A DNA stretch of 6,274 nucleotides, taken from the IMG/VR virus record IMGVR_UViG_2695420597_000012, one strand, 5' to 3'. The translations under genes were made by a program, and so were the position numbers. The notes below the pieces were generated by a model. The model saw nothing but the letters and a program-made list of their open reading frames with translations. It made no database searches and was not told the DNA's origin. The DNA is from a virus (Duplodnaviria; Heunggongvirae; Uroviricota; Caudoviricetes). Below are positions 1 through 6,274 of this stretch, in pieces (position 1 is the first letter of the stretch; every line of letters begins with the position of its first letter).

Positions 1-269
1 AGCCTTCAGGGAAAAATATCATCAGATGGCTGCTTAAAAAAAGAACAAATGGTAGTGTCCGCTATTGCCAGTACACCTCAGGATAGCGGTCATGTGATGC
101 CGGTTTCCCGGTAACTCAGCACCGGTATCTGAGTCAACGTTTTCTCTACTGGGTCATTTCCGATACGCCCTGCCTGCTGACAGGCTTTCATCACATCTGA
201 AAATATAGCACCCTGACTGATACTGTAGTACCTAAGGTTCCAGAAACTGTGATGTATCCGGCACAGAAA

Positions 270-288
270 AGCCCCTCCGGAGAGGGCT
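270..288 (-). other. Imperfect GC-rich stem-loop (7 bp with one bulge) followed on the minus strand by TTTCT; possible weak terminator or RNA 3' end
   Basis: agcccctccggagagggct. The unit 2 copy at 1901-1920 has one extra G, giving a perfect 8-bp stem. Confidence 0.3.
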
Positions 289-484
289 GGAGAGTGGCGC
301 TATGTGCCATTGCATGATGCCGGGTGCCTCCCGGTGAATTCAGTACCAGCACCTGAATCCGCGATTATCCCATATACCTACTCGCTGATTGCCCCTCCGC
401 ACAGGGGGATTCACCATGCCAGTTTCTTTTAACAAACTCCCCGCAAAACAGACAACTGTCAACCGTCTGAATTGTGAGACATTT

Positions 485-510
485 AAAAAAAAGGCCCGCA
501 AAAGCGAGCC
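485..510 (-). terminator. Rho-independent terminator directly after the tRNA cluster
   Basis: Minus strand reads ggctcgc-tttt-gcgggcc followed by TTTTTTTT (plus-strand A8 at 485-492, stem 493-499/504-510). It lies 15 nt after the CCA end of tRNA-Arg(UCU). Confidence 0.65.
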
Positions 511-524
511 AGGGAAAATAAGTG

Positions 525-601
525 TGGCGCGTTGTACTGGATTCGAACCAGTGACCGATTGCTTAGAAGGCAATTGCTCTGTCCGGCTGAGCTAACAACG
601 C
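525..601 (-). tRNA. argO: tRNA-Arg, anticodon UCU
   Basis: Hand-folded cloverleaf on the minus strand: acceptor GCGTTGT/ACAACGC, D-stem GCTC/GAGC, anticodon stem ATTGC/GCAAT with loop CTTCTAA, T-arm ACTGG-TTCGAAT-CCAGT, discriminator G, encoded CCA. The symbol is assigned from context (lambdoid ileZ-argN-argO cluster), not from a search. Confidence 0.8.
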
Positions 602-614
602 ATGATGCAGATAA

Positions 615-691
615 TGGACCGCCATCGGGGACTTGAACCCCGCGCAACCAGCTTCGAAGGCTGGCGCTCTTTCCTGATGAGCTAATGGCGG
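615..691 (-). tRNA. argN: tRNA-Arg, anticodon UCG (reads CGA/CGG)
   Basis: Acceptor CCGCCAT/ATGGCGG, D-stem GCTC/GAGC, anticodon stem CCAGC/GCTGG with loop CTTCGAA, T-arm CGGGG-TTCAAGT-CCCCG, encoded CCA. Unusual: position 1 is C, the discriminator is U, and A(-1) could pair with U73. Anticodon and symbol should be confirmed. Confidence 0.65.
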
Positions 692-698
692 TATGTGA

Positions 699-774
699 TG
701 GTGGCCCTTGCTGGATTTGAACCAGCGACCTGGCGATTATGAGTCGCTCGCTCTCACCACTGAGCTAAAGGGCC
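699..774 (-). tRNA. ileZ: tRNA-Ile2-like, anticodon CAU (lysidine type, reads AUA); formally could be Met
   Basis: GGCCCTT-TA-GCTC-AGTGGTGA-GAGC-G-AGCGA-CTCATAA-TCGCC-AGGTC-GCTGG-TTCAAAT-CCAGC-AAGGGCC-A-CCA. This closely resembles my recollection of E. coli ileX (tRNA-Ile2, CAU). Confidence 0.8.
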
Positions 775-814
775 GGGAGCCGCATAATAACGACGCGTAA
801 TTAATTCTTCAATA

Positions 815-1845
815 TCATCCGTTCTGGCTGACTAAATCCTGTACTTCCCGAACCGTCTGCTCAAAACGTTCAGTCTCCAGCTCAACGCCAATTGCACGAC
901 GCCCGAGCGCCAGTGCCGCTTTCACTGTCGAACCCAACCCCATGAAAAAATCTGCAATCAGGTCACCCGGACGACTGCTAGCGCTGATTATCTGCTGCAG
1001 CATTTCTGCCGGTTTTTCGCACGGATGTTTCCCGGGATAGAACTGCACCGGTTTATGCGTCCACACATCGGTATACGGCACCTGCACCGTCACGCCAAAA
1101 TACCGCCGCAGATGTTTATATTCACTCAGCAGCTCCGCATACTGCCGGTTCAGTGAGGTATACGTATCCACCAGCTGGTGGTGGAGCTTTTCCAGTTCAC
1201 CACGCCGATGCTTCTCTTCTGCCACCCGGGCAAACAGCGCCTGTAATTTCAGATAATCGCTTTCATTCGGCAACTGCCACTGACCGGCACTGAACCAGTG
1301 CGACACCATGTTTTTCTTTCCTGTGGCATCTGCAATCTGTTTTGCCGTTATCCCCAGGGCAGCTCGCGCATCACGAAAGTAAGAAATCAGCGGGGCCATC
1401 ACATGCTGTTTCAGTGCACTGCCCTTCGCCGCATACCCGGCATCTTTCGGACGATACGGCCCCTGATAATGTTCCGCGAACAGAATGCGCTCTGTGGCGG
1501 GGAAATACGCCCGCAGGCTTTCCTTGTTGCATCCGTTCCAGCGTCCGGACGGCTTCGCCCAGATAATATGGTTCAGCACACTGAAGCGTTCACGCATCAT
1601 GATTTCGATATCAGATGCCAGGCGATGACCACAGAACAGGTAAAGACTTCCGGCAGGTTTCAGCACCCGCCAGAACTGCGCCAGACACTGGTCCAGCCAC
1701 TTCAGGTAATCATCGTCGCCCTTCCACTGGTTATCCCAGCCCTCAGGCTTCACTTTAAAGTACGGCGGGTCCGTGACTATCAGGTCAACAGAATTTTCGG
1801 GTAACGACCGGATAAATTCCAGGCAGTCGGCGTTGATTAACTCAC
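815..1845 (-). pseudogene. DNA amino-methyltransferase (beta class), copy 1, missing the first ~9 codons and start codon
   Basis: Identical to 3793-4823. Motif IV DPPY and motif I DFFMGLGST are retained. The frame stays open upstream to a TAA at 1871-1873 with no in-frame ATG; the only GTG (1751-1753, used by the ORF track) lies after DPPY and has no Shine-Dalgarno. It could still be annotated as a CDS with a non-canonical start. Confidence 0.55.
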
Positions 1846-1900
1846 TAAAACAACAAAGTCCATAAGGAGTTTACTCACATCTGACAAAATCAATATAAAC

Positions 1901-1920
1901 AGCCCCTCCGGAGAGGGGCT
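1901..1920 (-). other. Perfect 8-bp GC-rich stem-loop (agcccctc-cgga-gaggggct)
   Basis: Direct inspection. Minus-strand downstream sequence is U-rich (gtttatattgatttt) but not a clean U-tract. Confidence 0.3.
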
Positions 1921-2116
1921 GGAGAGTGGCGCTATGTGCCATTGCATGGTGCCGGGTGCCTCCCGGTGAATTCAGTACCAGCACCTGAATCCGCGATTAT
2001 CCCATATACCTACTCGCTGATTGCCCCTCCGCACAGGGGGATTCACCATGCCAGTTTCTTTTAACAAACTCCCCGCAAACCAGACAACAGTCAACCGCCT
2101 GAATTGTGAGACATTT

Positions 2117-2142
2117 AAAAAAAAGGCCCACAAAAGCGAGCC
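2117..2142 (-). terminator. Rho-independent terminator after tRNA cluster 2
   Basis: Minus strand ggctcgc-tttt-gtgggcc + T8. One stem base differs from unit 1, giving a G-U pair, so the stem is kept. Confidence 0.6.
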
Positions 2143-2156
2143 AGGGAAAATAAGTG

Positions 2157-2233
2157 TGGCGCGTTGTACTGGATTCGAACCAGTGACCGATTGCTTAGAA
2201 GGCAATTGCTCTGTCCGGCTGAGCTAACAACGC
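2157..2233 (-). tRNA. argO: tRNA-Arg, anticodon UCU (copy 2)
   Basis: Identical to 525-601. Confidence 0.8.
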
Positions 2234-2246
2234 ATGATGCAGATAA

Positions 2247-2323
2247 TGGACCGCCATCGGGGACTTGAACCCCGCGCAACCAGCTTCGAAGGCTGGCGCT
2301 CTTTCCTGATGAGCTAATGGCGG
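2247..2323 (-). tRNA. argN: tRNA-Arg, anticodon UCG (copy 2)
   Basis: Identical to 615-691. Confidence 0.65.
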
Positions 2324-2330
2324 TATGTGA

Positions 2331-2406
2331 TGGTGGCCCTTGCTGGATTTGAACCAGCGACCTGGCGATTATGAGTCGCTCGCTCTCACCACTGAGCTAA
2401 AGGGCC
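2331..2406 (-). tRNA. ileZ: tRNA-Ile2-like, anticodon CAU (copy 2)
   Basis: Identical to 699-774. Confidence 0.8.
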
Positions 2407-2455
2407 GGGAGCAGAATAATAATGGTGCGTAATTAATTCTGCAATCTCATCCGTT

Positions 2456-3477
2456 TCAAACGATTAAATCCTGAACTTCCCTGACTGTCTGCTCAAAACG
2501 TCCGGTCTCCAGTTCAACGCCAATCGCACGACGCCCGAGCGCCAGTGCCGCTTTTACCGTTGAACCTGAGCCCATAAAAAAATCTGCAACCAGGTCTCCC
2601 GGACGACTGCTTGCGCTGATTATCTGCTGCAGCATTTCTGCCGGTTTTTCGCACGGATGTTTCCCGGGATAGAACTGCACCGGTTTATGTGTCCACACAT
2701 CCGTGTACGGCACCTGCGCCGTCACACCAAAATACCGCCGCAGATGCTTATATTCACTCTGCAGCTCCACATACTGCCGGTTCAGTGACGTATACGTATC
2801 CACCAGCTGGTGGTGGGGCTTTTCCAGTTCACCGCGCTGATGTTTCTCTTCTGCCACCCGGGCAAACAGCGACTGTAATTTCAGATAATCGCTTTCGTTC
2901 GGTAGCTGCCACTGACTGGCACTGAACCAGTGCGACACCATGTTTTTCTTTCCTGTGGCATCTGCAATCTGTTTTGCCGTTATCCCCAGGGCCGCGCGCG
3001 CATCACGAAAGTAAGAAATCAGCGGGGCCATCACATGCTGTTTCAGTGCACTGCCCTTCGCCGCATACCCGGCATCTTTCGGACGATACGGCCCCTGATA
3101 ATGTTCCGCGAACAGAATGCGCTCTGTGGCGGGGAAATACGCCCGCAGGCTTTCCTTGTTGCATCCGTTCCAGCGTCCGGACGGCTTCGCCCAGATAATA
3201 TGGTTCAGCACACTGAAGCGTTCACGCATCATGATTTCGATATCAGATGCCAGGCGATGACCACAGAACAGGTAAAGACTTCCGGCAGGTTTCAGCACCC
3301 GCCAGAACTGCGCCAGACACTGGTCCAGCCACTTCAGGTAATCATCGTCGCCCTTCCACTGGTTATCCCAGCCCTCAGGCTTCACTTTAAAGTACGGCGG
3401 GTCCGTGACTATCAGGTCAACAGAATTTTCGGGTAACGACCGGATAAATTCCAGGCAGTCGGCGTTGATTAACTCAC
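2456..3477 (-). pseudogene. DNA amino-methyltransferase, diverged paralog (copy 2), N-terminally truncated at the junction with tRNA cluster 3
   Basis: About 10 amino-acid differences from copies 1 and 3, a C-terminus 3 codons shorter (LIV* versus LVSQNG*), and many silent nucleotide changes. DPPY is retained; motif I is DFFMGSGST. The frame runs upstream into tRNA-derived sequence with no in-frame ATG. Confidence 0.55.
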
Positions 3478-3502
3478 AAAAGCGAGCCAGGGAAAATAAG
3501 TG

Positions 3503-3579
3503 TGGCGCGTTGTACTGGATTCGAACCAGTGACCGATTGCTTAGAAGGCAATTGCTCTGTCCGGCTGAGCTAACAACGC
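3503..3579 (-). tRNA. argO: tRNA-Arg, anticodon UCU (copy 3)
   Basis: Identical to 525-601. Confidence 0.8.
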
Positions 3580-3592
3580 ATGATGCAGATAA

Positions 3593-3669
3593 TGGACCGC
3601 CATCGGGGACTTGAACCCCGCGCAGCCAGCTTCGAAGGCTGGCGCTCTTTCCTGATGAGCTAATGGCGG
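3593..3669 (-). tRNA. argN: tRNA-Arg, anticodon UCG (copy 3, variable-loop variant)
   Basis: Same as 615-691 except plus-strand A to G at 3625 (variable loop TTGCG to CTGCG in the tRNA). Confidence 0.65.
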
Positions 3670-3676
3670 TATGTGA

Positions 3677-3752
3677 TGGTGGCCCTTGCTGGATTTGAAC
3701 CAGCGACCTGGCGATTATGAGTCGCTCGCTCTCACCACTGAGCTAAAGGGCC
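3677..3752 (-). tRNA. ileZ: tRNA-Ile2-like, anticodon CAU (copy 3)
   Basis: Identical to 699-774. Confidence 0.8.
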
Positions 3753-3792
3753 GGGAGCCGCATAATAACGACGCGTAATTAATTCTTCAATA

Positions 3793-4851
3793 TCATCCGT
3801 TCTGGCTGACTAAATCCTGTACTTCCCGAACCGTCTGCTCAAAACGTTCAGTCTCCAGCTCAACGCCAATTGCACGACGCCCGAGCGCCAGTGCCGCTTT
3901 CACTGTCGAACCCAACCCCATGAAAAAATCTGCAATCAGGTCACCCGGACGACTGCTAGCGCTGATTATCTGCTGCAGCATTTCTGCCGGTTTTTCGCAC
4001 GGATGTTTCCCGGGATAGAACTGCACCGGTTTATGCGTCCACACATCGGTATACGGCACCTGCACCGTCACGCCAAAATACCGCCGCAGATGTTTATATT
4101 CACTCAGCAGCTCCGCATACTGCCGGTTCAGTGAGGTATACGTATCCACCAGCTGGTGGTGGAGCTTTTCCAGTTCACCACGCCGATGCTTCTCTTCTGC
4201 CACCCGGGCAAACAGCGCCTGTAATTTCAGATAATCGCTTTCATTCGGCAACTGCCACTGACCGGCACTGAACCAGTGCGACACCATGTTTTTCTTTCCT
4301 GTGGCATCTGCAATCTGTTTTGCCGTTATCCCCAGGGCAGCTCGCGCATCACGAAAGTAAGAAATCAGCGGGGCCATCACATGCTGTTTCAGTGCACTGC
4401 CCTTCGCCGCATACCCGGCATCTTTCGGACGATACGGCCCCTGATAATGTTCCGCGAACAGAATGCGCTCTGTGGCGGGGAAATACGCCCGCAGGCTTTC
4501 CTTGTTGCATCCGTTCCAGCGTCCGGACGGCTTCGCCCAGATAATATGGTTCAGCACACTGAAGCGTTCACGCATCATGATTTCGATATCAGATGCCAGG
4601 CGATGACCACAGAACAGGTAAAGACTTCCGGCAGGTTTCAGCACCCGCCAGAACTGCGCCAGACACTGGTCCAGCCACTTCAGGTAATCATCGTCGCCCT
4701 TCCACTGGTTATCCCAGCCCTCAGGCTTCACTTTAAAGTACGGCGGGTCCGTGACTATCAGGTCAACAGAATTTTCGGGTAACGACCGGATAAATTCCAG
4801 GCAGTCGGCGTTGATTAACTCACAACTGGATATTTTTACAGTATTAAGCAT
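3793..4851 (-). CDS. DNA N6-adenine or N4-cytosine methyltransferase (beta-class, likely orphan, phage type), full length 352 aa
   Basis: ATG at 4849-4851 with an in-frame TGA two codons upstream. DPPY (motif IV) lies near the N-terminus and FxGxG (DFFMGLGST, motif I) near the C-terminus, the IV-then-I order of beta-class amino-MTases. No adjacent restriction endonuclease ORF. The Shine-Dalgarno is weak. Confidence 0.85.
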   Translation of the reverse strand: MLNTVKISSCELINADCLEFIRSLPENSVDLIVTDPPYFKVKPEGWDNQWKGDDDYLKWLDQCLAQFWRVLKPAGSLYLFCGHRLASDIEIMMRERFSVLNHIIWAKPSGRWNGCNKESLRAYFPATERILFAEHYQGPYRPKDAGYAAKGSALKQHVMAPLISYFRDARAALGITAKQIADATGKKNMVSHWFSAGQWQLPNESDYLKLQALFARVAEEKHRRGELEKLHHQLVDTYTSLNRQYAELLSEYKHLRRYFGVTVQVPYTDVWTHKPVQFYPGKHPCEKPAEMLQQIISASSRPGDLIADFFMGLGSTVKAALALGRRAIGVELETERFEQTVREVQDLVSQNG

Positions 4852-4944
4852 GGATCATTAAGCCTGTCTCTGATAGGCTCATTCTGCTTTTGCGCAAAGC
4901 AGTGGGCCTGAGGTTTGCTTGTGAACCCAACGCATGAGCAGATG

Positions 4945-4973
4945 GCTGGTGGGTGCCCCTAACACCCACCAGC
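4945..4973 (-). other. Perfect 11-bp stem-loop (gctggtgggtg-cccctaa-cacccaccagc), not followed by a U-tract on either strand
   Basis: Direct inspection. It lies between the terminator at 4986-5015 and the methyltransferase start. Confidence 0.5.
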
Positions 4974-4985
4974 CGCCCATTTACC

Positions 4986-5015
4986 ACAAATAAAAAAGCC
5001 TTCACTGCGGAAGGC
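4986..5015 (-). terminator. Rho-independent terminator after the 65-aa ORF
   Basis: Minus strand gccttccgcagtgaaggc (6-bp stem) followed by TTTTTTATTT. The ORF stop codon (5002-5004) lies inside the stem. Confidence 0.55.
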
Positions 5016-5199
5016 GTCTGTAACAACCGAACTGATAGTCTGCCAGACCCGCCATAACCAGCTGGGTCAGTATTAACTGGCAGCGTTCGCGTGAAAGGTA
5101 AGTATTCTGCGCTATCTCCCCGACTGTCGCCGGTTCGGTAACGCTTAATTCATTAAACACCACTCTGGCGGTTTCTGTCATATCCTGCTGTTTTAGCAT
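5002..5199 (-). CDS. Small 65-aa protein, possibly a winged-helix DNA-binding protein (PapI/FaeA-like pattern)
   Basis: ATG at 5197-5199 preceded by AAGGA 6 nt upstream (minus strand ggaaaaggaaaagacATG), with its own terminator. The segment TVGEIAQNTYLSRERCQLILTQLVMAGL resembles small winged-helix regulators. The fold assignment is by eye only. Confidence 0.4.
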   Translation of the reverse strand: MLKQQDMTETARVVFNELSVTEPATVGEIAQNTYLSRERCQLILTQLVMAGLADYQFGCYRRLPQ

Positions 5200-5317
5200 G
5201 TCTTTTCCTTTTCCGGTTAACGTGACACACCAATAACTCTTGTCGAAAAAGCCAGCAAGCTGAAAGACAGGTATTCACCGCCACCAGCGCGTTTACTGTA
5301 CTGACGCGATTTCAGTC

Positions 5318-5341
5318 ATAAAAAACCCGCCAGGCGGCGGG
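5318..5341 (-). terminator. Strong rho-independent terminator ~85 nt downstream of Q (tR'-like)
   Basis: Minus strand cccgcc-gcct-ggcggg (6 GC pairs) followed by TTTTTTAT. Confidence 0.6.
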
Positions 5342-5390
5342 GTGTAAAAAATCTTCTAACGTCAGGCATAAAACGCCCATCGTTAGAGCA

Positions 5391-5418
5391 AATTTACCAC
5401 AGATTCGGGAAAAATCAA
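5391..5418 (-). promoter_or_regulatory. Candidate sigma70 late promoter (PR'-like) just after the Q stop
   Basis: Minus strand TTGATT (5418-5413) - 16 nt - TAAATT (5396-5391). Hexamer match only; the qut site is not identifiable by eye. Confidence 0.25.
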
Positions 5419-5423
5419 CAACA

Positions 5424-6245
5424 CTATCGCGTTACCCTCTTTAACTGCCGCTCCGCCCATGCCTCTTCAATGTCAAACCGAACCACCAACGTATCGTAAA
5501 AGCGTTTCACTGATTTTTTCCACGTATCAAGCGTGATAGCACTCGTCACTTTGCATATGGCATTAAATGCCTCCGTTGATGGCAGCCTTTCACAGCCACG
5601 ACCACCACAACGCTGGCAGTCTCTGATAACAGGCATACCACGTTTTACCGACTCTTCACGATGAATGGCGACACCACGCCCACGGCAATCCTTACAGGCG
5701 GTGGAAACCTCACCCTTTCCGCCACACTCCGGACAGGCAACTTTTACCACCTCCCGATTTTTTTTCCATTCTTCCCAGTAAGACGGATACACACCTTTCG
5801 TACACTTTGCCCATACCGGCGGCTTACCATCCGGATACTGGACCTTGTTTGTAAAAACTACGCTTTCAATAAATTTTTCCCCATAGCAACAAGGGCACTG
5901 CTTTTTACTCGCTGCGCTGCGGGCATAATCCTCAAAAGCGTACGAAGCCATAATGCGCATCACTACCGGTTTTATTTCTGCCGGGAGTTTTCTTAACGCC
6001 GCCACGCGATCACACCGACTGAGTGCATATTCTGTCAGCAATTCTGTTGCCCGCTCTCTGTCATTCATACTAATGCCCATTTTCCCAAGGAACGCAGAAA
6101 ACCCCATCTCAGCCCGATTCTGTGTCATGCCCTGCGCGGCCATCACATCAGTGATACTCAGCGCATCTTTCGACGTTGAGGCCGATGCATCAGTCAGGCC
6201 GGGGGATTTTGGGGAGTAGTATTTCGGTAAATCTTCCAGTTTCAT
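5424..6245 (-). CDS. Antitermination protein Q-like (long Q family with DnaJ-type CxxCxGxG zinc-finger repeats), 273 aa
   Basis: ATG at 6243-6245, stop TAG at 5424-5426. Three CxxCxGxG-type repeats (CPECGGKG, CKDCRGRG, CQRCGGRG) plus CPCC. It sits immediately upstream of a promoter/terminator pair and the methyltransferase-tRNA late region, as in lambdoid prophages. Family assignment is from memory, not a search. Confidence 0.6.
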   Translation of the reverse strand: MKLEDLPKYYSPKSPGLTDASASTSKDALSITDVMAAQGMTQNRAEMGFSAFLGKMGISMNDRERATELLTEYALSRCDRVAALRKLPAEIKPVVMRIMASYAFEDYARSAASKKQCPCCYGEKFIESVVFTNKVQYPDGKPPVWAKCTKGVYPSYWEEWKKNREVVKVACPECGGKGEVSTACKDCRGRGVAIHREESVKRGMPVIRDCQRCGGRGCERLPSTEAFNAICKVTSAITLDTWKKSVKRFYDTLVVRFDIEEAWAERQLKRVTR

Positions 6246-6274
6246 TTTTTGACCTGCCCTTCAAGCATTATGGG

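Follow-up and report, generated by a model that had tools for sequence, protein, structure and literature searches.

The threefold methyltransferase and tRNA array of a 6274-nt prophage scaffold is very probably an assembly artefact

When a phage cassette pairing a DNA methyltransferase with arginine and isoleucine tRNAs is written three times in succession within one short record, does the repetition reflect selection for a higher dosage of counter-defence genes, as the original prediction proposed, or the way in which the record was assembled? The window analysed here, by which we mean the whole stretch of 6274 nt, is identical in extent to the record CXEY01000265.1 of the draft assembly GCA_001258915.1. 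We put the probability at about 90% that it is a short-read scaffold containing a false threefold array, and that each prophage of the source isolate has one real cassette, with rare-codon tRNAs and an M.EcoGII-like methyltransferase.

CXEY01000265.1 is the reverse complement of the window save at two positions, 3476 and 1844, each of which is N in the public record and T in the window. Self-comparison of the window divides it into three units (A, B and C), and the two N positions are exactly the inter-unit boundaries. Because the Ns sit exactly there, both junctions are scaffold gaps and not sequenced joins (position 3476 between pieces 1 and 2, position 1844 between pieces 2 and 3), and the window thus consists of three pieces (3477-6274, 1845-3475 and 1-1843) without read-through. 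The continuous sequence across novel junctions that marks a genuine amplification is interrupted by an N at both, and the reported tandem amplification is accounted for as an artefact of scaffolding and gap filling. A neighbouring assembly (GCA_001258955.1) contains N runs in the same prophage region, one single-N gap among them.

All three pieces have their cassette genes on the minus strand. Piece 1 (3477-6274) contains the Q gene, terminators, a 65-aa ORF, an intact methyltransferase gene and three tRNAs. Piece 2 (1845..3475) represents the cassette of another prophage. Its methyltransferase gene extends from codon 11 to the stop (3475..2456) and is accompanied by three tRNAs (2406..2331, 2323..2247 and 2233..2157), a terminator (2142-2125), an STnc100 sRNA (2080..1891, Rfam) and, as judged from genomic context, the 3' end only of a convergent IraM/PmrD-like gene. 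Piece 2 is identical over 1631/1631 nt (100.000%) to a single-copy locus in the complete chromosome CP151292.1 (hereafter L026), which encodes the window's exact Q protein upstream. Piece 3 (1..1843), a cassette of the type found in S. sonnei-type chromosomes, contains the methyltransferase from codon 11 (1843..815), three tRNAs (774..699, 691..615 and 601..525), a terminator (510-493), an STnc100 sRNA (448..259, Rfam) and the end part of an IS3-family insertion sequence (1-79); E. coli loci without this insertion sequence align to the window from position 80 onward only. Compared with the single-copy S. sonnei-type loci (L005-L014), piece 3 has one mismatch in 1843 nt, the insertion sequence junction included, and it and the 3' part of piece 1 probably derive from one physical locus. 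Piece 1 itself switches from L026 type to S. sonnei type inside the stretch shared by the two variants; natural mosaicism, instead of a chimeric contig, could account for this switch.

Units A and C are 99.93% identical, while unit B is 96% identical to either. Such a pattern is what one would predict from a single locus written as both A and C, and it would be unusual under stepwise amplification. The sole difference between A and C lies inside tRNA-Arg(UCG), where position 3625 is C and position 647 is T, and can be explained only by an error in the consensus or by a third genomic copy of the cassette. The tRNA genes are intact in the extra units. Functional methyltransferase copies are not present in units B and C, whose genes lack the start codon and first nine codons, begin at codon 11, and have their first canonical start codon only after the catalytic DPPY motif (a TTG in the unit C gene region is CTG in unit A). 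Translation of the unit B gene as a fusion from an upstream start, through a frame that is open across the tRNA genes, was considered and rejected, there being no ATG, GTG or TTG before DPPY. Elsewhere, the truncated 309-aa and 312-aa ORF products occur only in genes cut short by contig ends or gaps. The proposal of amplification for dosage is refuted, the array being put down to scaffolding or gap filling.

The positions of the piece ends are informative as to how the joins arose. Every piece end halts at a base that differs between the cassette variants of different prophages: at gap 3476 the left side ends one base short of a C/T difference in the loop of the tRNA terminator, and the right side begins one base past a T/C difference equivalent to position 4822; at gap 1844 the right side again begins one base past the difference equivalent to 4822. 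In the reference loci, GAGTTAATC is preceded by T in the S. sonnei-type locus L005 but by C in L026; the two variants also disagree on the base that follows CGCTTTTG (C or T); and, for gap 1844, TTTTAG is followed by C in L026 and by T in L004. Over about 990 nt (4343-5330) the two variants differ by a single substitution, at position 4822, and by an indel at 5206. A biological breakpoint would be expected to land on 4822 only about one time in 1000, whereas both joins lie on it. Neither junction was spanned in 5,426 complete E. coli genomes searched with 121-nt junction queries, which gave half-matches only, and the exact junction patterns had no match in collections of genome, viral or metagenome contigs (two scans each for genome and viral contigs, and one degenerate pattern covering both junctions for metagenome contigs). 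Illegitimate recombination mediated by microhomology (TTG or TTGTG) at the junctions was also considered, and was dropped once the Ns were found there.

These observations suggest the following origin of the array. The source isolate would be Shigella sonnei-like with at least two lambda-like prophages, each carrying one module composed of Q, tR' terminators, the 65-aa ORF, the methyltransferase, the Ile2, Arg(UCG) and Arg(UCU) tRNAs, and the STnc100 sRNA. The two modules share about 1 kb of near-identical sequence that covers the region following Q and the 5' part of the methyltransferase gene, and this stretch exceeds the insert length of a typical short-read library. A scaffolder and gap filler may then have chained the variant-specific parts, extending each until the reads disagreed and leaving one N per join, with a false threefold tandem array as the product; units A and C would be one physical locus written twice, and unit B the copy from the other prophage. 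GapFiller extends base by base and halts at ambiguous bases in repeats (PMC3446322), and the paper describing the Sanger pipeline, with a dataset that includes 299 S. sonnei assemblies, reports that SSPACE and GapFiller can produce false joins (PMC5320598). The use of these two programs for GCA_001258915.1 is suggested by its single-N gaps together with the organism and the accession batch.

As to the content of the single cassette, its predicted position downstream of Q is borne out, with two terminator-like hairpins between Q and the methyltransferase. The Q-type late antiterminator gene (5424..6245, minus strand, 273 aa) belongs to the Antiterm family (PF03589, E=5e-51) and to phrog_127 (1.8e-110), described as ‘anti-termination protein Q-like’, and its RefSeq relatives are annotated as ‘antitermination protein’. 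A consensus scan identified, 83 nt past the stop codon of Q, a terminator-like hairpin with the sequence CCCGCCGCCTGGCGGG and a T run behind it (5326..5341, minus strand; read 5341-5326), which its position makes a candidate tR', and a second hairpin (4998..5015, minus strand; read 5015-4998) overlapping the stop codon of the 65-aa ORF; a further weaker hairpin lies at 5390-5374. The 65-aa ORF (5002..5199, minus strand; phrog_331, 1.4e-37) is the hypothetical protein WP_000917767.1 in relatives. A simple sigma-70 scan between Q and the first terminator gave no pR'-like promoter. The Q gene and the two or three terminator-like hairpins lie on the same strand as the cargo, and the cassette may be transcribed from a late promoter once Q permits read-through of the terminators.

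The orphan methyltransferase predicted within 3503-4851 on the minus strand is likewise present. Its gene (3793..4851, minus strand), the only complete methyltransferase gene in the window, is an intact ORF encoding a 352-aa beta-class adenine DNA methyltransferase of the M.EcoGI/M.EcoGII family (PF01555, N6/N4 DNA methyltransferase, E=8e-42, spanning residues 29-340), with the beta-class motif order of DPPY (residues 35-38), target recognition domain and FxGxG (FMGLGS, residues 310-315). It shares 324/349 residues with M.EcoGII, an identity of at least 93%, which is a lower bound because the M.EcoGII sequence used, obtained by machine reading of the PMC11551740 supplement, contains errors. 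It is 95% identical to the enzyme of phage 1720a-02, cited by Murray et al. as a close relative of M.EcoGII (PMC5778455). The exact protein is found on about 1000 contigs and goes under the name of a Shigella or S. sonnei methyltransferase, and a look-up of the intact methyltransferase returned 4,314 blocks, including the single-copy S. sonnei loci. No restriction endonuclease gene was found in the window or in related complete prophages, and the neighbours in all related loci are Q, the 65-aa ORF, the tRNAs, a SASA esterase and lysis genes. M.EcoGII methylates adenine irrespective of context and blocks many restriction enzymes; it is silent in the lysogen, and its switch-on at induction has been proposed (PMC5778455). 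By analogy with M.EcoGII, the enzyme encoded here would methylate adenine with little or no specificity on induction, and progeny DNA could thereby become resistant to many restriction enzymes. The anti-restriction role suggested by the original prediction is thus supported by the sequence relationship and is reasonable, but it is not new, having already been published.

The predicted arginine and isoleucine tRNAs are encoded immediately downstream, as tRNA-Ile2 with anticodon CAU (3677..3752), tRNA-Arg(UCG) (3593..3669) and tRNA-Arg(UCU) (3503..3579), all on the minus strand and identified by ARAGORN and Rfam. The CAU tRNA, labelled ‘Met’ by ARAGORN, matches K-12 ileX at 68/76 positions, shares its anticodon loop and has a near-identical anticodon stem, and is for this reason an Ile2 (lysidine-type) tRNA of the ileX/ileZ type, in agreement with the original isoleucine call and with the RefSeq annotation of relatives as tRNA-Ile. 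The anticodon loops, which had been proposed for comparison with those of host isoacceptors, are CUCAUAA in Ile2, as in ileX, and CUUCUAA in Arg-UCU, as in argU, with A38-G39 also as in argU; the Arg-UCG loop, CUUCGAA, differs from host Arg-ACG at position 34 only. Relative to argU and ileX, the Arg-UCU and Ile2 loops bear no sign of nuclease-evading mutations. The three tRNAs read ATA, AGA/AGG and CGA. Of these codons, the host seldom uses ATA, AGA and AGG, which are enriched in prophage genes 3.9-fold, 5.5-fold and 9.6-fold, respectively, compared with 42 K-12 genes. This enrichment favours ordinary codon supply, in line with the rare-codon decoding originally put forward, and the tRNAs would most likely serve to sustain late-gene translation.

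The most direct rival to the artefact is a real array, formed by unequal or illegitimate recombination between co-resident prophages, from which the assembler missed one base per junction. The order of the pieces implies some read-pair linkage, which a scaffolder requires; a gap filler that works by extension would likewise come to a halt in a real array whose junctions happened to fall at these bases; and nine intact tRNA genes would lift tRNA dosage. Small true rearrangements do occur at this locus in complete genomes, namely a 455-bp tandem duplication of the 5' end of the methyltransferase gene in E. coli CB7453 and an IS421 insertion in the methyltransferase gene. Against this, both junctions lack any spanning sequence, the two joins coincide with the only substitution that distinguishes the variants in about 1 kb and with further variant sites, the pieces are each 99.9-100% identical to, and colinear with, a known single-copy locus, the relationship of A to C and B misfits stepwise amplification, and the junctions were in no collection searched. 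Two of the three methyltransferase copies would moreover be 5'-truncated pseudogenes, so that methyltransferase dosage would not rise even if the array were real. We regard such an array as very unlikely, and a false array from scaffolding as the better account of the window. The broader proposal of a co-selected, Q-gated module with two counter-defence functions, or its weaker version with a real three-unit array in this isolate, we consider improbable.

The remaining alternatives concern the function of a single cassette. In one, the tRNAs serve mainly in counter-defence, replenishing tRNA-Arg and tRNA-Ile destroyed by anticodon nucleases of the host or of competitors (colicin D-like, PrrC/RloC-like, retron or PARIS effectors), and form a two-function module with the methyltransferase. 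They adjoin an enzyme with a credible anti-restriction role, and tRNA-Arg(UCG) is not known to have a direct counterpart in K-12, whose ACG and UCU genes were the tRNA-Arg genes compared, which we count in favour of this function. The Ile2 and Arg-UCU loops are nevertheless the same as those of host ileX and argU, the enrichment of ATA, AGA and AGG suffices to explain retention of the tRNAs, and we know of no anticodon nuclease specific for tRNA-Ile, which we count against it. In its favour, neutralization of tRNA-cleaving defences by phage tRNAs is documented for other phages (PMC10264068, PMC11464382, PMC11555353). Since the loops equal those of the host, replacement of nuclease-cut host tRNAs is not supported at this locus, and we hold it to be an improbable explanation of the tRNAs. 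In the other alternative, the methyltransferase gene has decayed or is permanently silent in the prophage and has no role, and only the tRNAs matter. Consistent with this, M.EcoGI and M.EcoGII are not expressed in the lysogen (PMC5778455), prophage orphan methyltransferases without a detectable motif have been reported in STEC methylomes (PMC6602927), and the gene is disrupted in some genomes, by the IS421 insertion and partial duplication mentioned above. Silence in the lysogen is, on the other hand, to be expected where Q-controlled terminators precede a gene; the intact ORF has a product that recurs in exact form on about 1000 contigs, the catalytic DPPY and FxGxG motifs are conserved, and recombinant M.EcoGII is highly active (PMC5778455). 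A gene without a role is therefore highly improbable, and we retain a cassette with a lytic-phase methyltransferase and codon-supplying tRNAs as the preferred reading.

Once the N positions of a scaffolded draft have been replaced by bases, assembly gaps can mimic a selected gene amplification, and caution is warranted with such records. False duplications at unclosed gaps, of the type left by SSPACE and GapFiller, have the same sequence on both sides of a residual N, as here, and the likeness extends to pieces that end at copy-differing bases and are each colinear with a single-copy reference, the pipeline in the present case being presumed. The module itself is real and widespread, and its methyltransferase has a characterized and commercially used relative in M.EcoGII. 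M.EcoGII and M.EcoGI, studied in E. coli O104:H4 C227-11 by Murray et al. in 2018 (PMC5778455), have the same beta-class motif order and a length of 349-352 aa, and are likewise prophage-borne and without a partner endonuclease. The present enzyme differs from M.EcoGII at no more than 25 residues, several of them in the central target recognition region, and at the C-terminal end, which is …DLVSQNG in unit A and …DLIV in M.EcoGII. The phage tRNAs that evade or compensate for anticodon nucleases in T5 and mycobacteriophage (PMC10264068, PMC11464382) are likewise phage-encoded, and are expressed in lytic growth; unlike them, the tRNAs of this cassette have loops unaltered from the host isoacceptors, number only three and are all of the rare-codon type.

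The methyltransferase and three-tRNA cassette 3' of Q is well known in lambda-like and Shiga-toxin prophages. A DNA search matched 3,971/5,426 complete E. coli genomes (median, three places in each genome with any match), and the usual context in prophages and Stx phages is a single copy. Stx2a phages have 352-aa putative methylases downstream of Q (PMC10462455). The order Ile(CAU)-Arg(UCG)-Arg(UCU) on the late strand downstream of Q is the same in the window, Stx2 phages, phiP27 and RefSeq prophages, and corresponds to the ileZ-argN-argO cluster of 933W, phiP27 and Stx2a/2c phages, which has the same three anticodons in the same order directly 3' of Q and a methylase; a search for ileZ, argN and argO in combination returned nothing in the papers searched. 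Stx2 phage records annotating argN, tRNA-Arg and tRNA-Ile are 84-94% identical to the window in DNA sequence, and phiP27 is 87% identical, with the same layout of Q, small ORF, methylase and tRNAs. Unlike in the Stx phages, the cassette is followed not by stx genes but by the STnc100 sRNA, and thereafter by an insertion sequence and a SASA-family esterase gene in the S. sonnei type, or an IraM-like gene and the esterase gene in the L026 type.

All of the listed features of the window lie on the minus strand. The cassette comprises a gene for a 273-aa Q-type antiterminator (6245..5424; PF03589; phrog 'anti-termination protein Q-like'), terminator-like hairpins found by terminator scan at 5341-5326 and 5015-4998, a weaker one at 5390-5374, a conserved 65-aa ORF (5199..5002; phrog_331), a 352-aa N6/N4 DNA methyltransferase (4851..3793; PF01555, E=8e-42) and three tRNA genes with anticodons CAT, TCG and TCT (3752..3503; ARAGORN and Rfam). 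The original prediction was correct about the contents of 3503-4851, namely a methyltransferase with Arg and Ile tRNAs, and about the Q gene and terminators upstream. The CAT tRNA is labelled Met by ARAGORN, against which stands its 68/76 identity to E. coli K-12 ileX with the same anticodon loop; its sequence identifies it as an Ile2 tRNA, in agreement with the RefSeq annotation. The tRNA-Arg(UCG) has an unusual discriminator base, U73.

Self-comparison of the window yields three methyltransferase-tRNA units, A (3477-4823 and beyond), B (1897-3481) and C (267-1850), which had been interpreted as tandem amplification of a counter-defence cassette. Units A and C show one difference in 1347 bases (99.93% identity), whereas B shares only about 96% identity with each of them. 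The sole A/C difference, C at 3625 versus T at 647, falls within the tRNA-Arg(UCG) variable region. Unit B (2279) has the T as well, though C is otherwise A-type; this could represent a consensus mix-up or mean that the genome holds a third cassette. Units B and C start at the identical methyltransferase nucleotide (…|GAGTTAATCAACGCC), at codon 11, and therefore lack the start codon and first codons; neither contains an in-frame ATG, GTG or TTG 5' of the catalytic DPPY motif. Taken at face value, the tandem units would amplify the tRNAs alone, with no working methyltransferase gained.

The exact Q protein of the window was found by protein look-up to be encoded on NCBI contig CXEY01000265.1 of draft assembly GCA_001258915.1. 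This contig, of exactly 6274 nt, is the reverse complement of the window apart from two positions at which an N in the record stands against a T in the window. The two positions, 3476 and 1844, coincide exactly with both unit boundaries, and the window therefore consists of three pieces, 1 (3477-6274), 2 (1845-3475) and 3 (1-1843), joined by single-N gaps, with no sequenced read-through at either junction in the public record CXEY01000265.1. The N was apparently swapped for T in the window sequence, thus hiding the scaffold gaps from a reader of the sequence alone. In the same prophage region, the neighbouring assembly GCA_001258955.1 contains N runs of 1 to 987 bases, indicating that this batch of records consists of gapped scaffolds. 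A DNA search of 5,426 complete E. coli genomes returned no locus spanning either junction, and the exact junction patterns were absent from species-representative genomes, viral contigs and metagenome contigs.

All of the piece ends adjoin bases that vary between the cassette variants of different prophages. At the base preceding GAGTTAATC, the S. sonnei-type locus has T, as against C in L026, a single-copy cassette locus in the complete chromosome CP151292.1. In the tRNA terminator loop, the base immediately after CGCTTTTG is either C or T, depending on the type. The base following TTTTAG also varies, being C in L026 but T in L004, a further cassette locus. Across 4343-5330 (~990 nt), the two variants differ by a single substitution, the T/C site equivalent to 4822, and otherwise just by an indel at 5206. 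The chance of a biological breakpoint at this base is about 1/1000, yet both joins occur there. GapFiller extends base by base and halts at an ambiguous overhang base, and its authors attribute unclosed gaps to repeats (PMC3446322). Piece ends at variant bases are what this kind of extension-based gap filling is described as producing. The paper describing the Sanger assembly pipeline, whose dataset included 299 S. sonnei assemblies, notes that SSPACE and GapFiller are greedy and that false joins are possible (PMC5320598); CXEY01000265.1 was presumably produced by this pipeline.

The pieces match loci of two types. Piece 2 matches L026 with 100.000% identity over 1631 nt; in L026 the order is Q, 65-aa ORF, 349-aa methyltransferase, tRNAs, IraM/PmrD-like gene and SASA esterase, and the Q protein is identical to that of the window. 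The end of piece 2 (1845-1866, plus strand) lies inside the 3' end of the convergent IraM/PmrD-like anti-adaptor gene (4687-5022 in L004), which in some Qin-like prophages separates the tRNA cluster from the lysis genes. Piece 3 differs from S. sonnei-type chromosomes at 1 of 1843 nt, and the match takes in the end of an IS3-family element (HTH_Tnp_1 and rve transposase in related loci) at window 1-79, 3' of the cassette. This element is present in S. sonnei-type chromosomes and missing from E. coli loci, and as a lineage marker suggests Shigella sonnei as the source. Piece 1 has 0 mismatches to the S. sonnei type over 3477-5330 and is of the L026 type over 5331-6274. The switch from the L026 type (Q side) to the S. 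sonnei type (methyltransferase side) falls somewhere in 5207-5330; either the contig is a chimera that arose in the shared repeat, or recombination took place naturally. The simplest reading is that two prophages carry a single cassette each. Units A and C would then be one and the same S. sonnei-type locus, recorded twice, and unit B the cassette of the prophage owning the Q gene at the window end, which would explain why A and C are nearly identical and B differs.

In complete genomes, each prophage has one cassette and a genome has several prophages; cassette DNA was matched in 3,971 of the 5,426 complete E. coli genomes, at a median of 3 places per genome with any match. The cassette locus does rearrange in nature: E. 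coli CB7453 (NZ_CM144245.1, chromosome-level; locus L001, 5767-6248) contains a separate ~455-bp tandem duplication of the methyltransferase upstream region and first 369 nt, placing an N-terminal fragment ahead of the full gene, and another locus (L003) has IS421 inside the methyltransferase gene. Given single-N gaps at the junctions, pieces that match single-copy loci and no genome spanning the joins, we consider the tandem amplification to be an assembly artefact, with a probability of roughly 90%; it is improbable that the isolate has a genuine array or that the tRNAs serve in counter-defence.

The proposed anti-restriction role of the methyltransferase is sensible but not new, since the enzyme is related to M.EcoGII, for which this view has been published. 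Its identity to M.EcoGII is at least 93%, a lower bound as the comparison sequence was machine-read, and true identity is probably higher; identity to the phage 1720a-02 enzyme, named by Murray et al. as a close M.EcoGII relative (PMC5778455), is 95%. M.EcoGII methylates adenine in any context, shielding DNA from many restriction enzymes; its constitutive expression is toxic, it is not expressed in the lysogen, and its switching on at prophage induction was proposed by the authors (PMC5778455). Q-dependence of the methyltransferase gene is inferred only from its position: the gene is on the late strand, and two or three terminator-like hairpins precede it. A simple sigma-70 scan of the stretch from Q to the first terminator gave no pR'-like promoter.

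For the tRNAs, the original prediction combined rare-codon decoding, which is supported, with replacement of nuclease-cut host tRNAs, which the anticodon loops, compared as that prediction proposed, do not support. The Ile2 and Arg-UCU tRNAs have the same anticodon loops as host ileX and argU, and that of Arg-UCG differs from host Arg-ACG at position 34 only, unlike the nuclease-evading tRNAs of other phages, whose loops are mutated (PMC10264068). The codons ATA, AGA and AGG have frequencies of 9.5, 6.7 and 6.4 per 1000 in 20 L026 prophage genes, compared to 2.4, 1.2 and 0.7 in 42 K-12 genes (odds ratios 3.9 to 9.6, p < 1e-7); CGA showed no significant enrichment in the same comparison. The role with the best support is thus the ordinary one of supplying phage genes with rare-codon tRNAs; one against tRNA nucleases is less likely. 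A sigma-70-like site (TTGAAG, 17-nt spacer, TATTAT; consensus match only) at 3790-3762 and 812-784, minus strand, overlaps the methyltransferase gene end just 5' of tRNA-Ile in units A and C, was not called by scan in unit B, and could give the tRNAs Q-independent expression. In pieces 2 and 3, the tRNA cluster is closely followed by an STnc100-family sRNA (Rfam RF02076; 1891-2080 and 259-448, minus strand; 124-132 bits versus a gathering score of 47), ending at the terminator hairpin 1921-1900 / 288-270. The sRNA appears to belong to the conserved module.

The real cassette is already known, and a single copy of it has nothing new. A study of Stx2a phages reports putative methylases of 352 aa downstream of Q, as well as one Stx2 prophage whose Q protein has 273 aa (PMC10462455). 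Phage phiP27 has the same annotated layout of Q, small ORF, methylase, tRNA-Ile, tRNA-Arg and tRNA-Arg, as do many Stx2a, Stx2c and Stx2d phages and non-Stx prophages.
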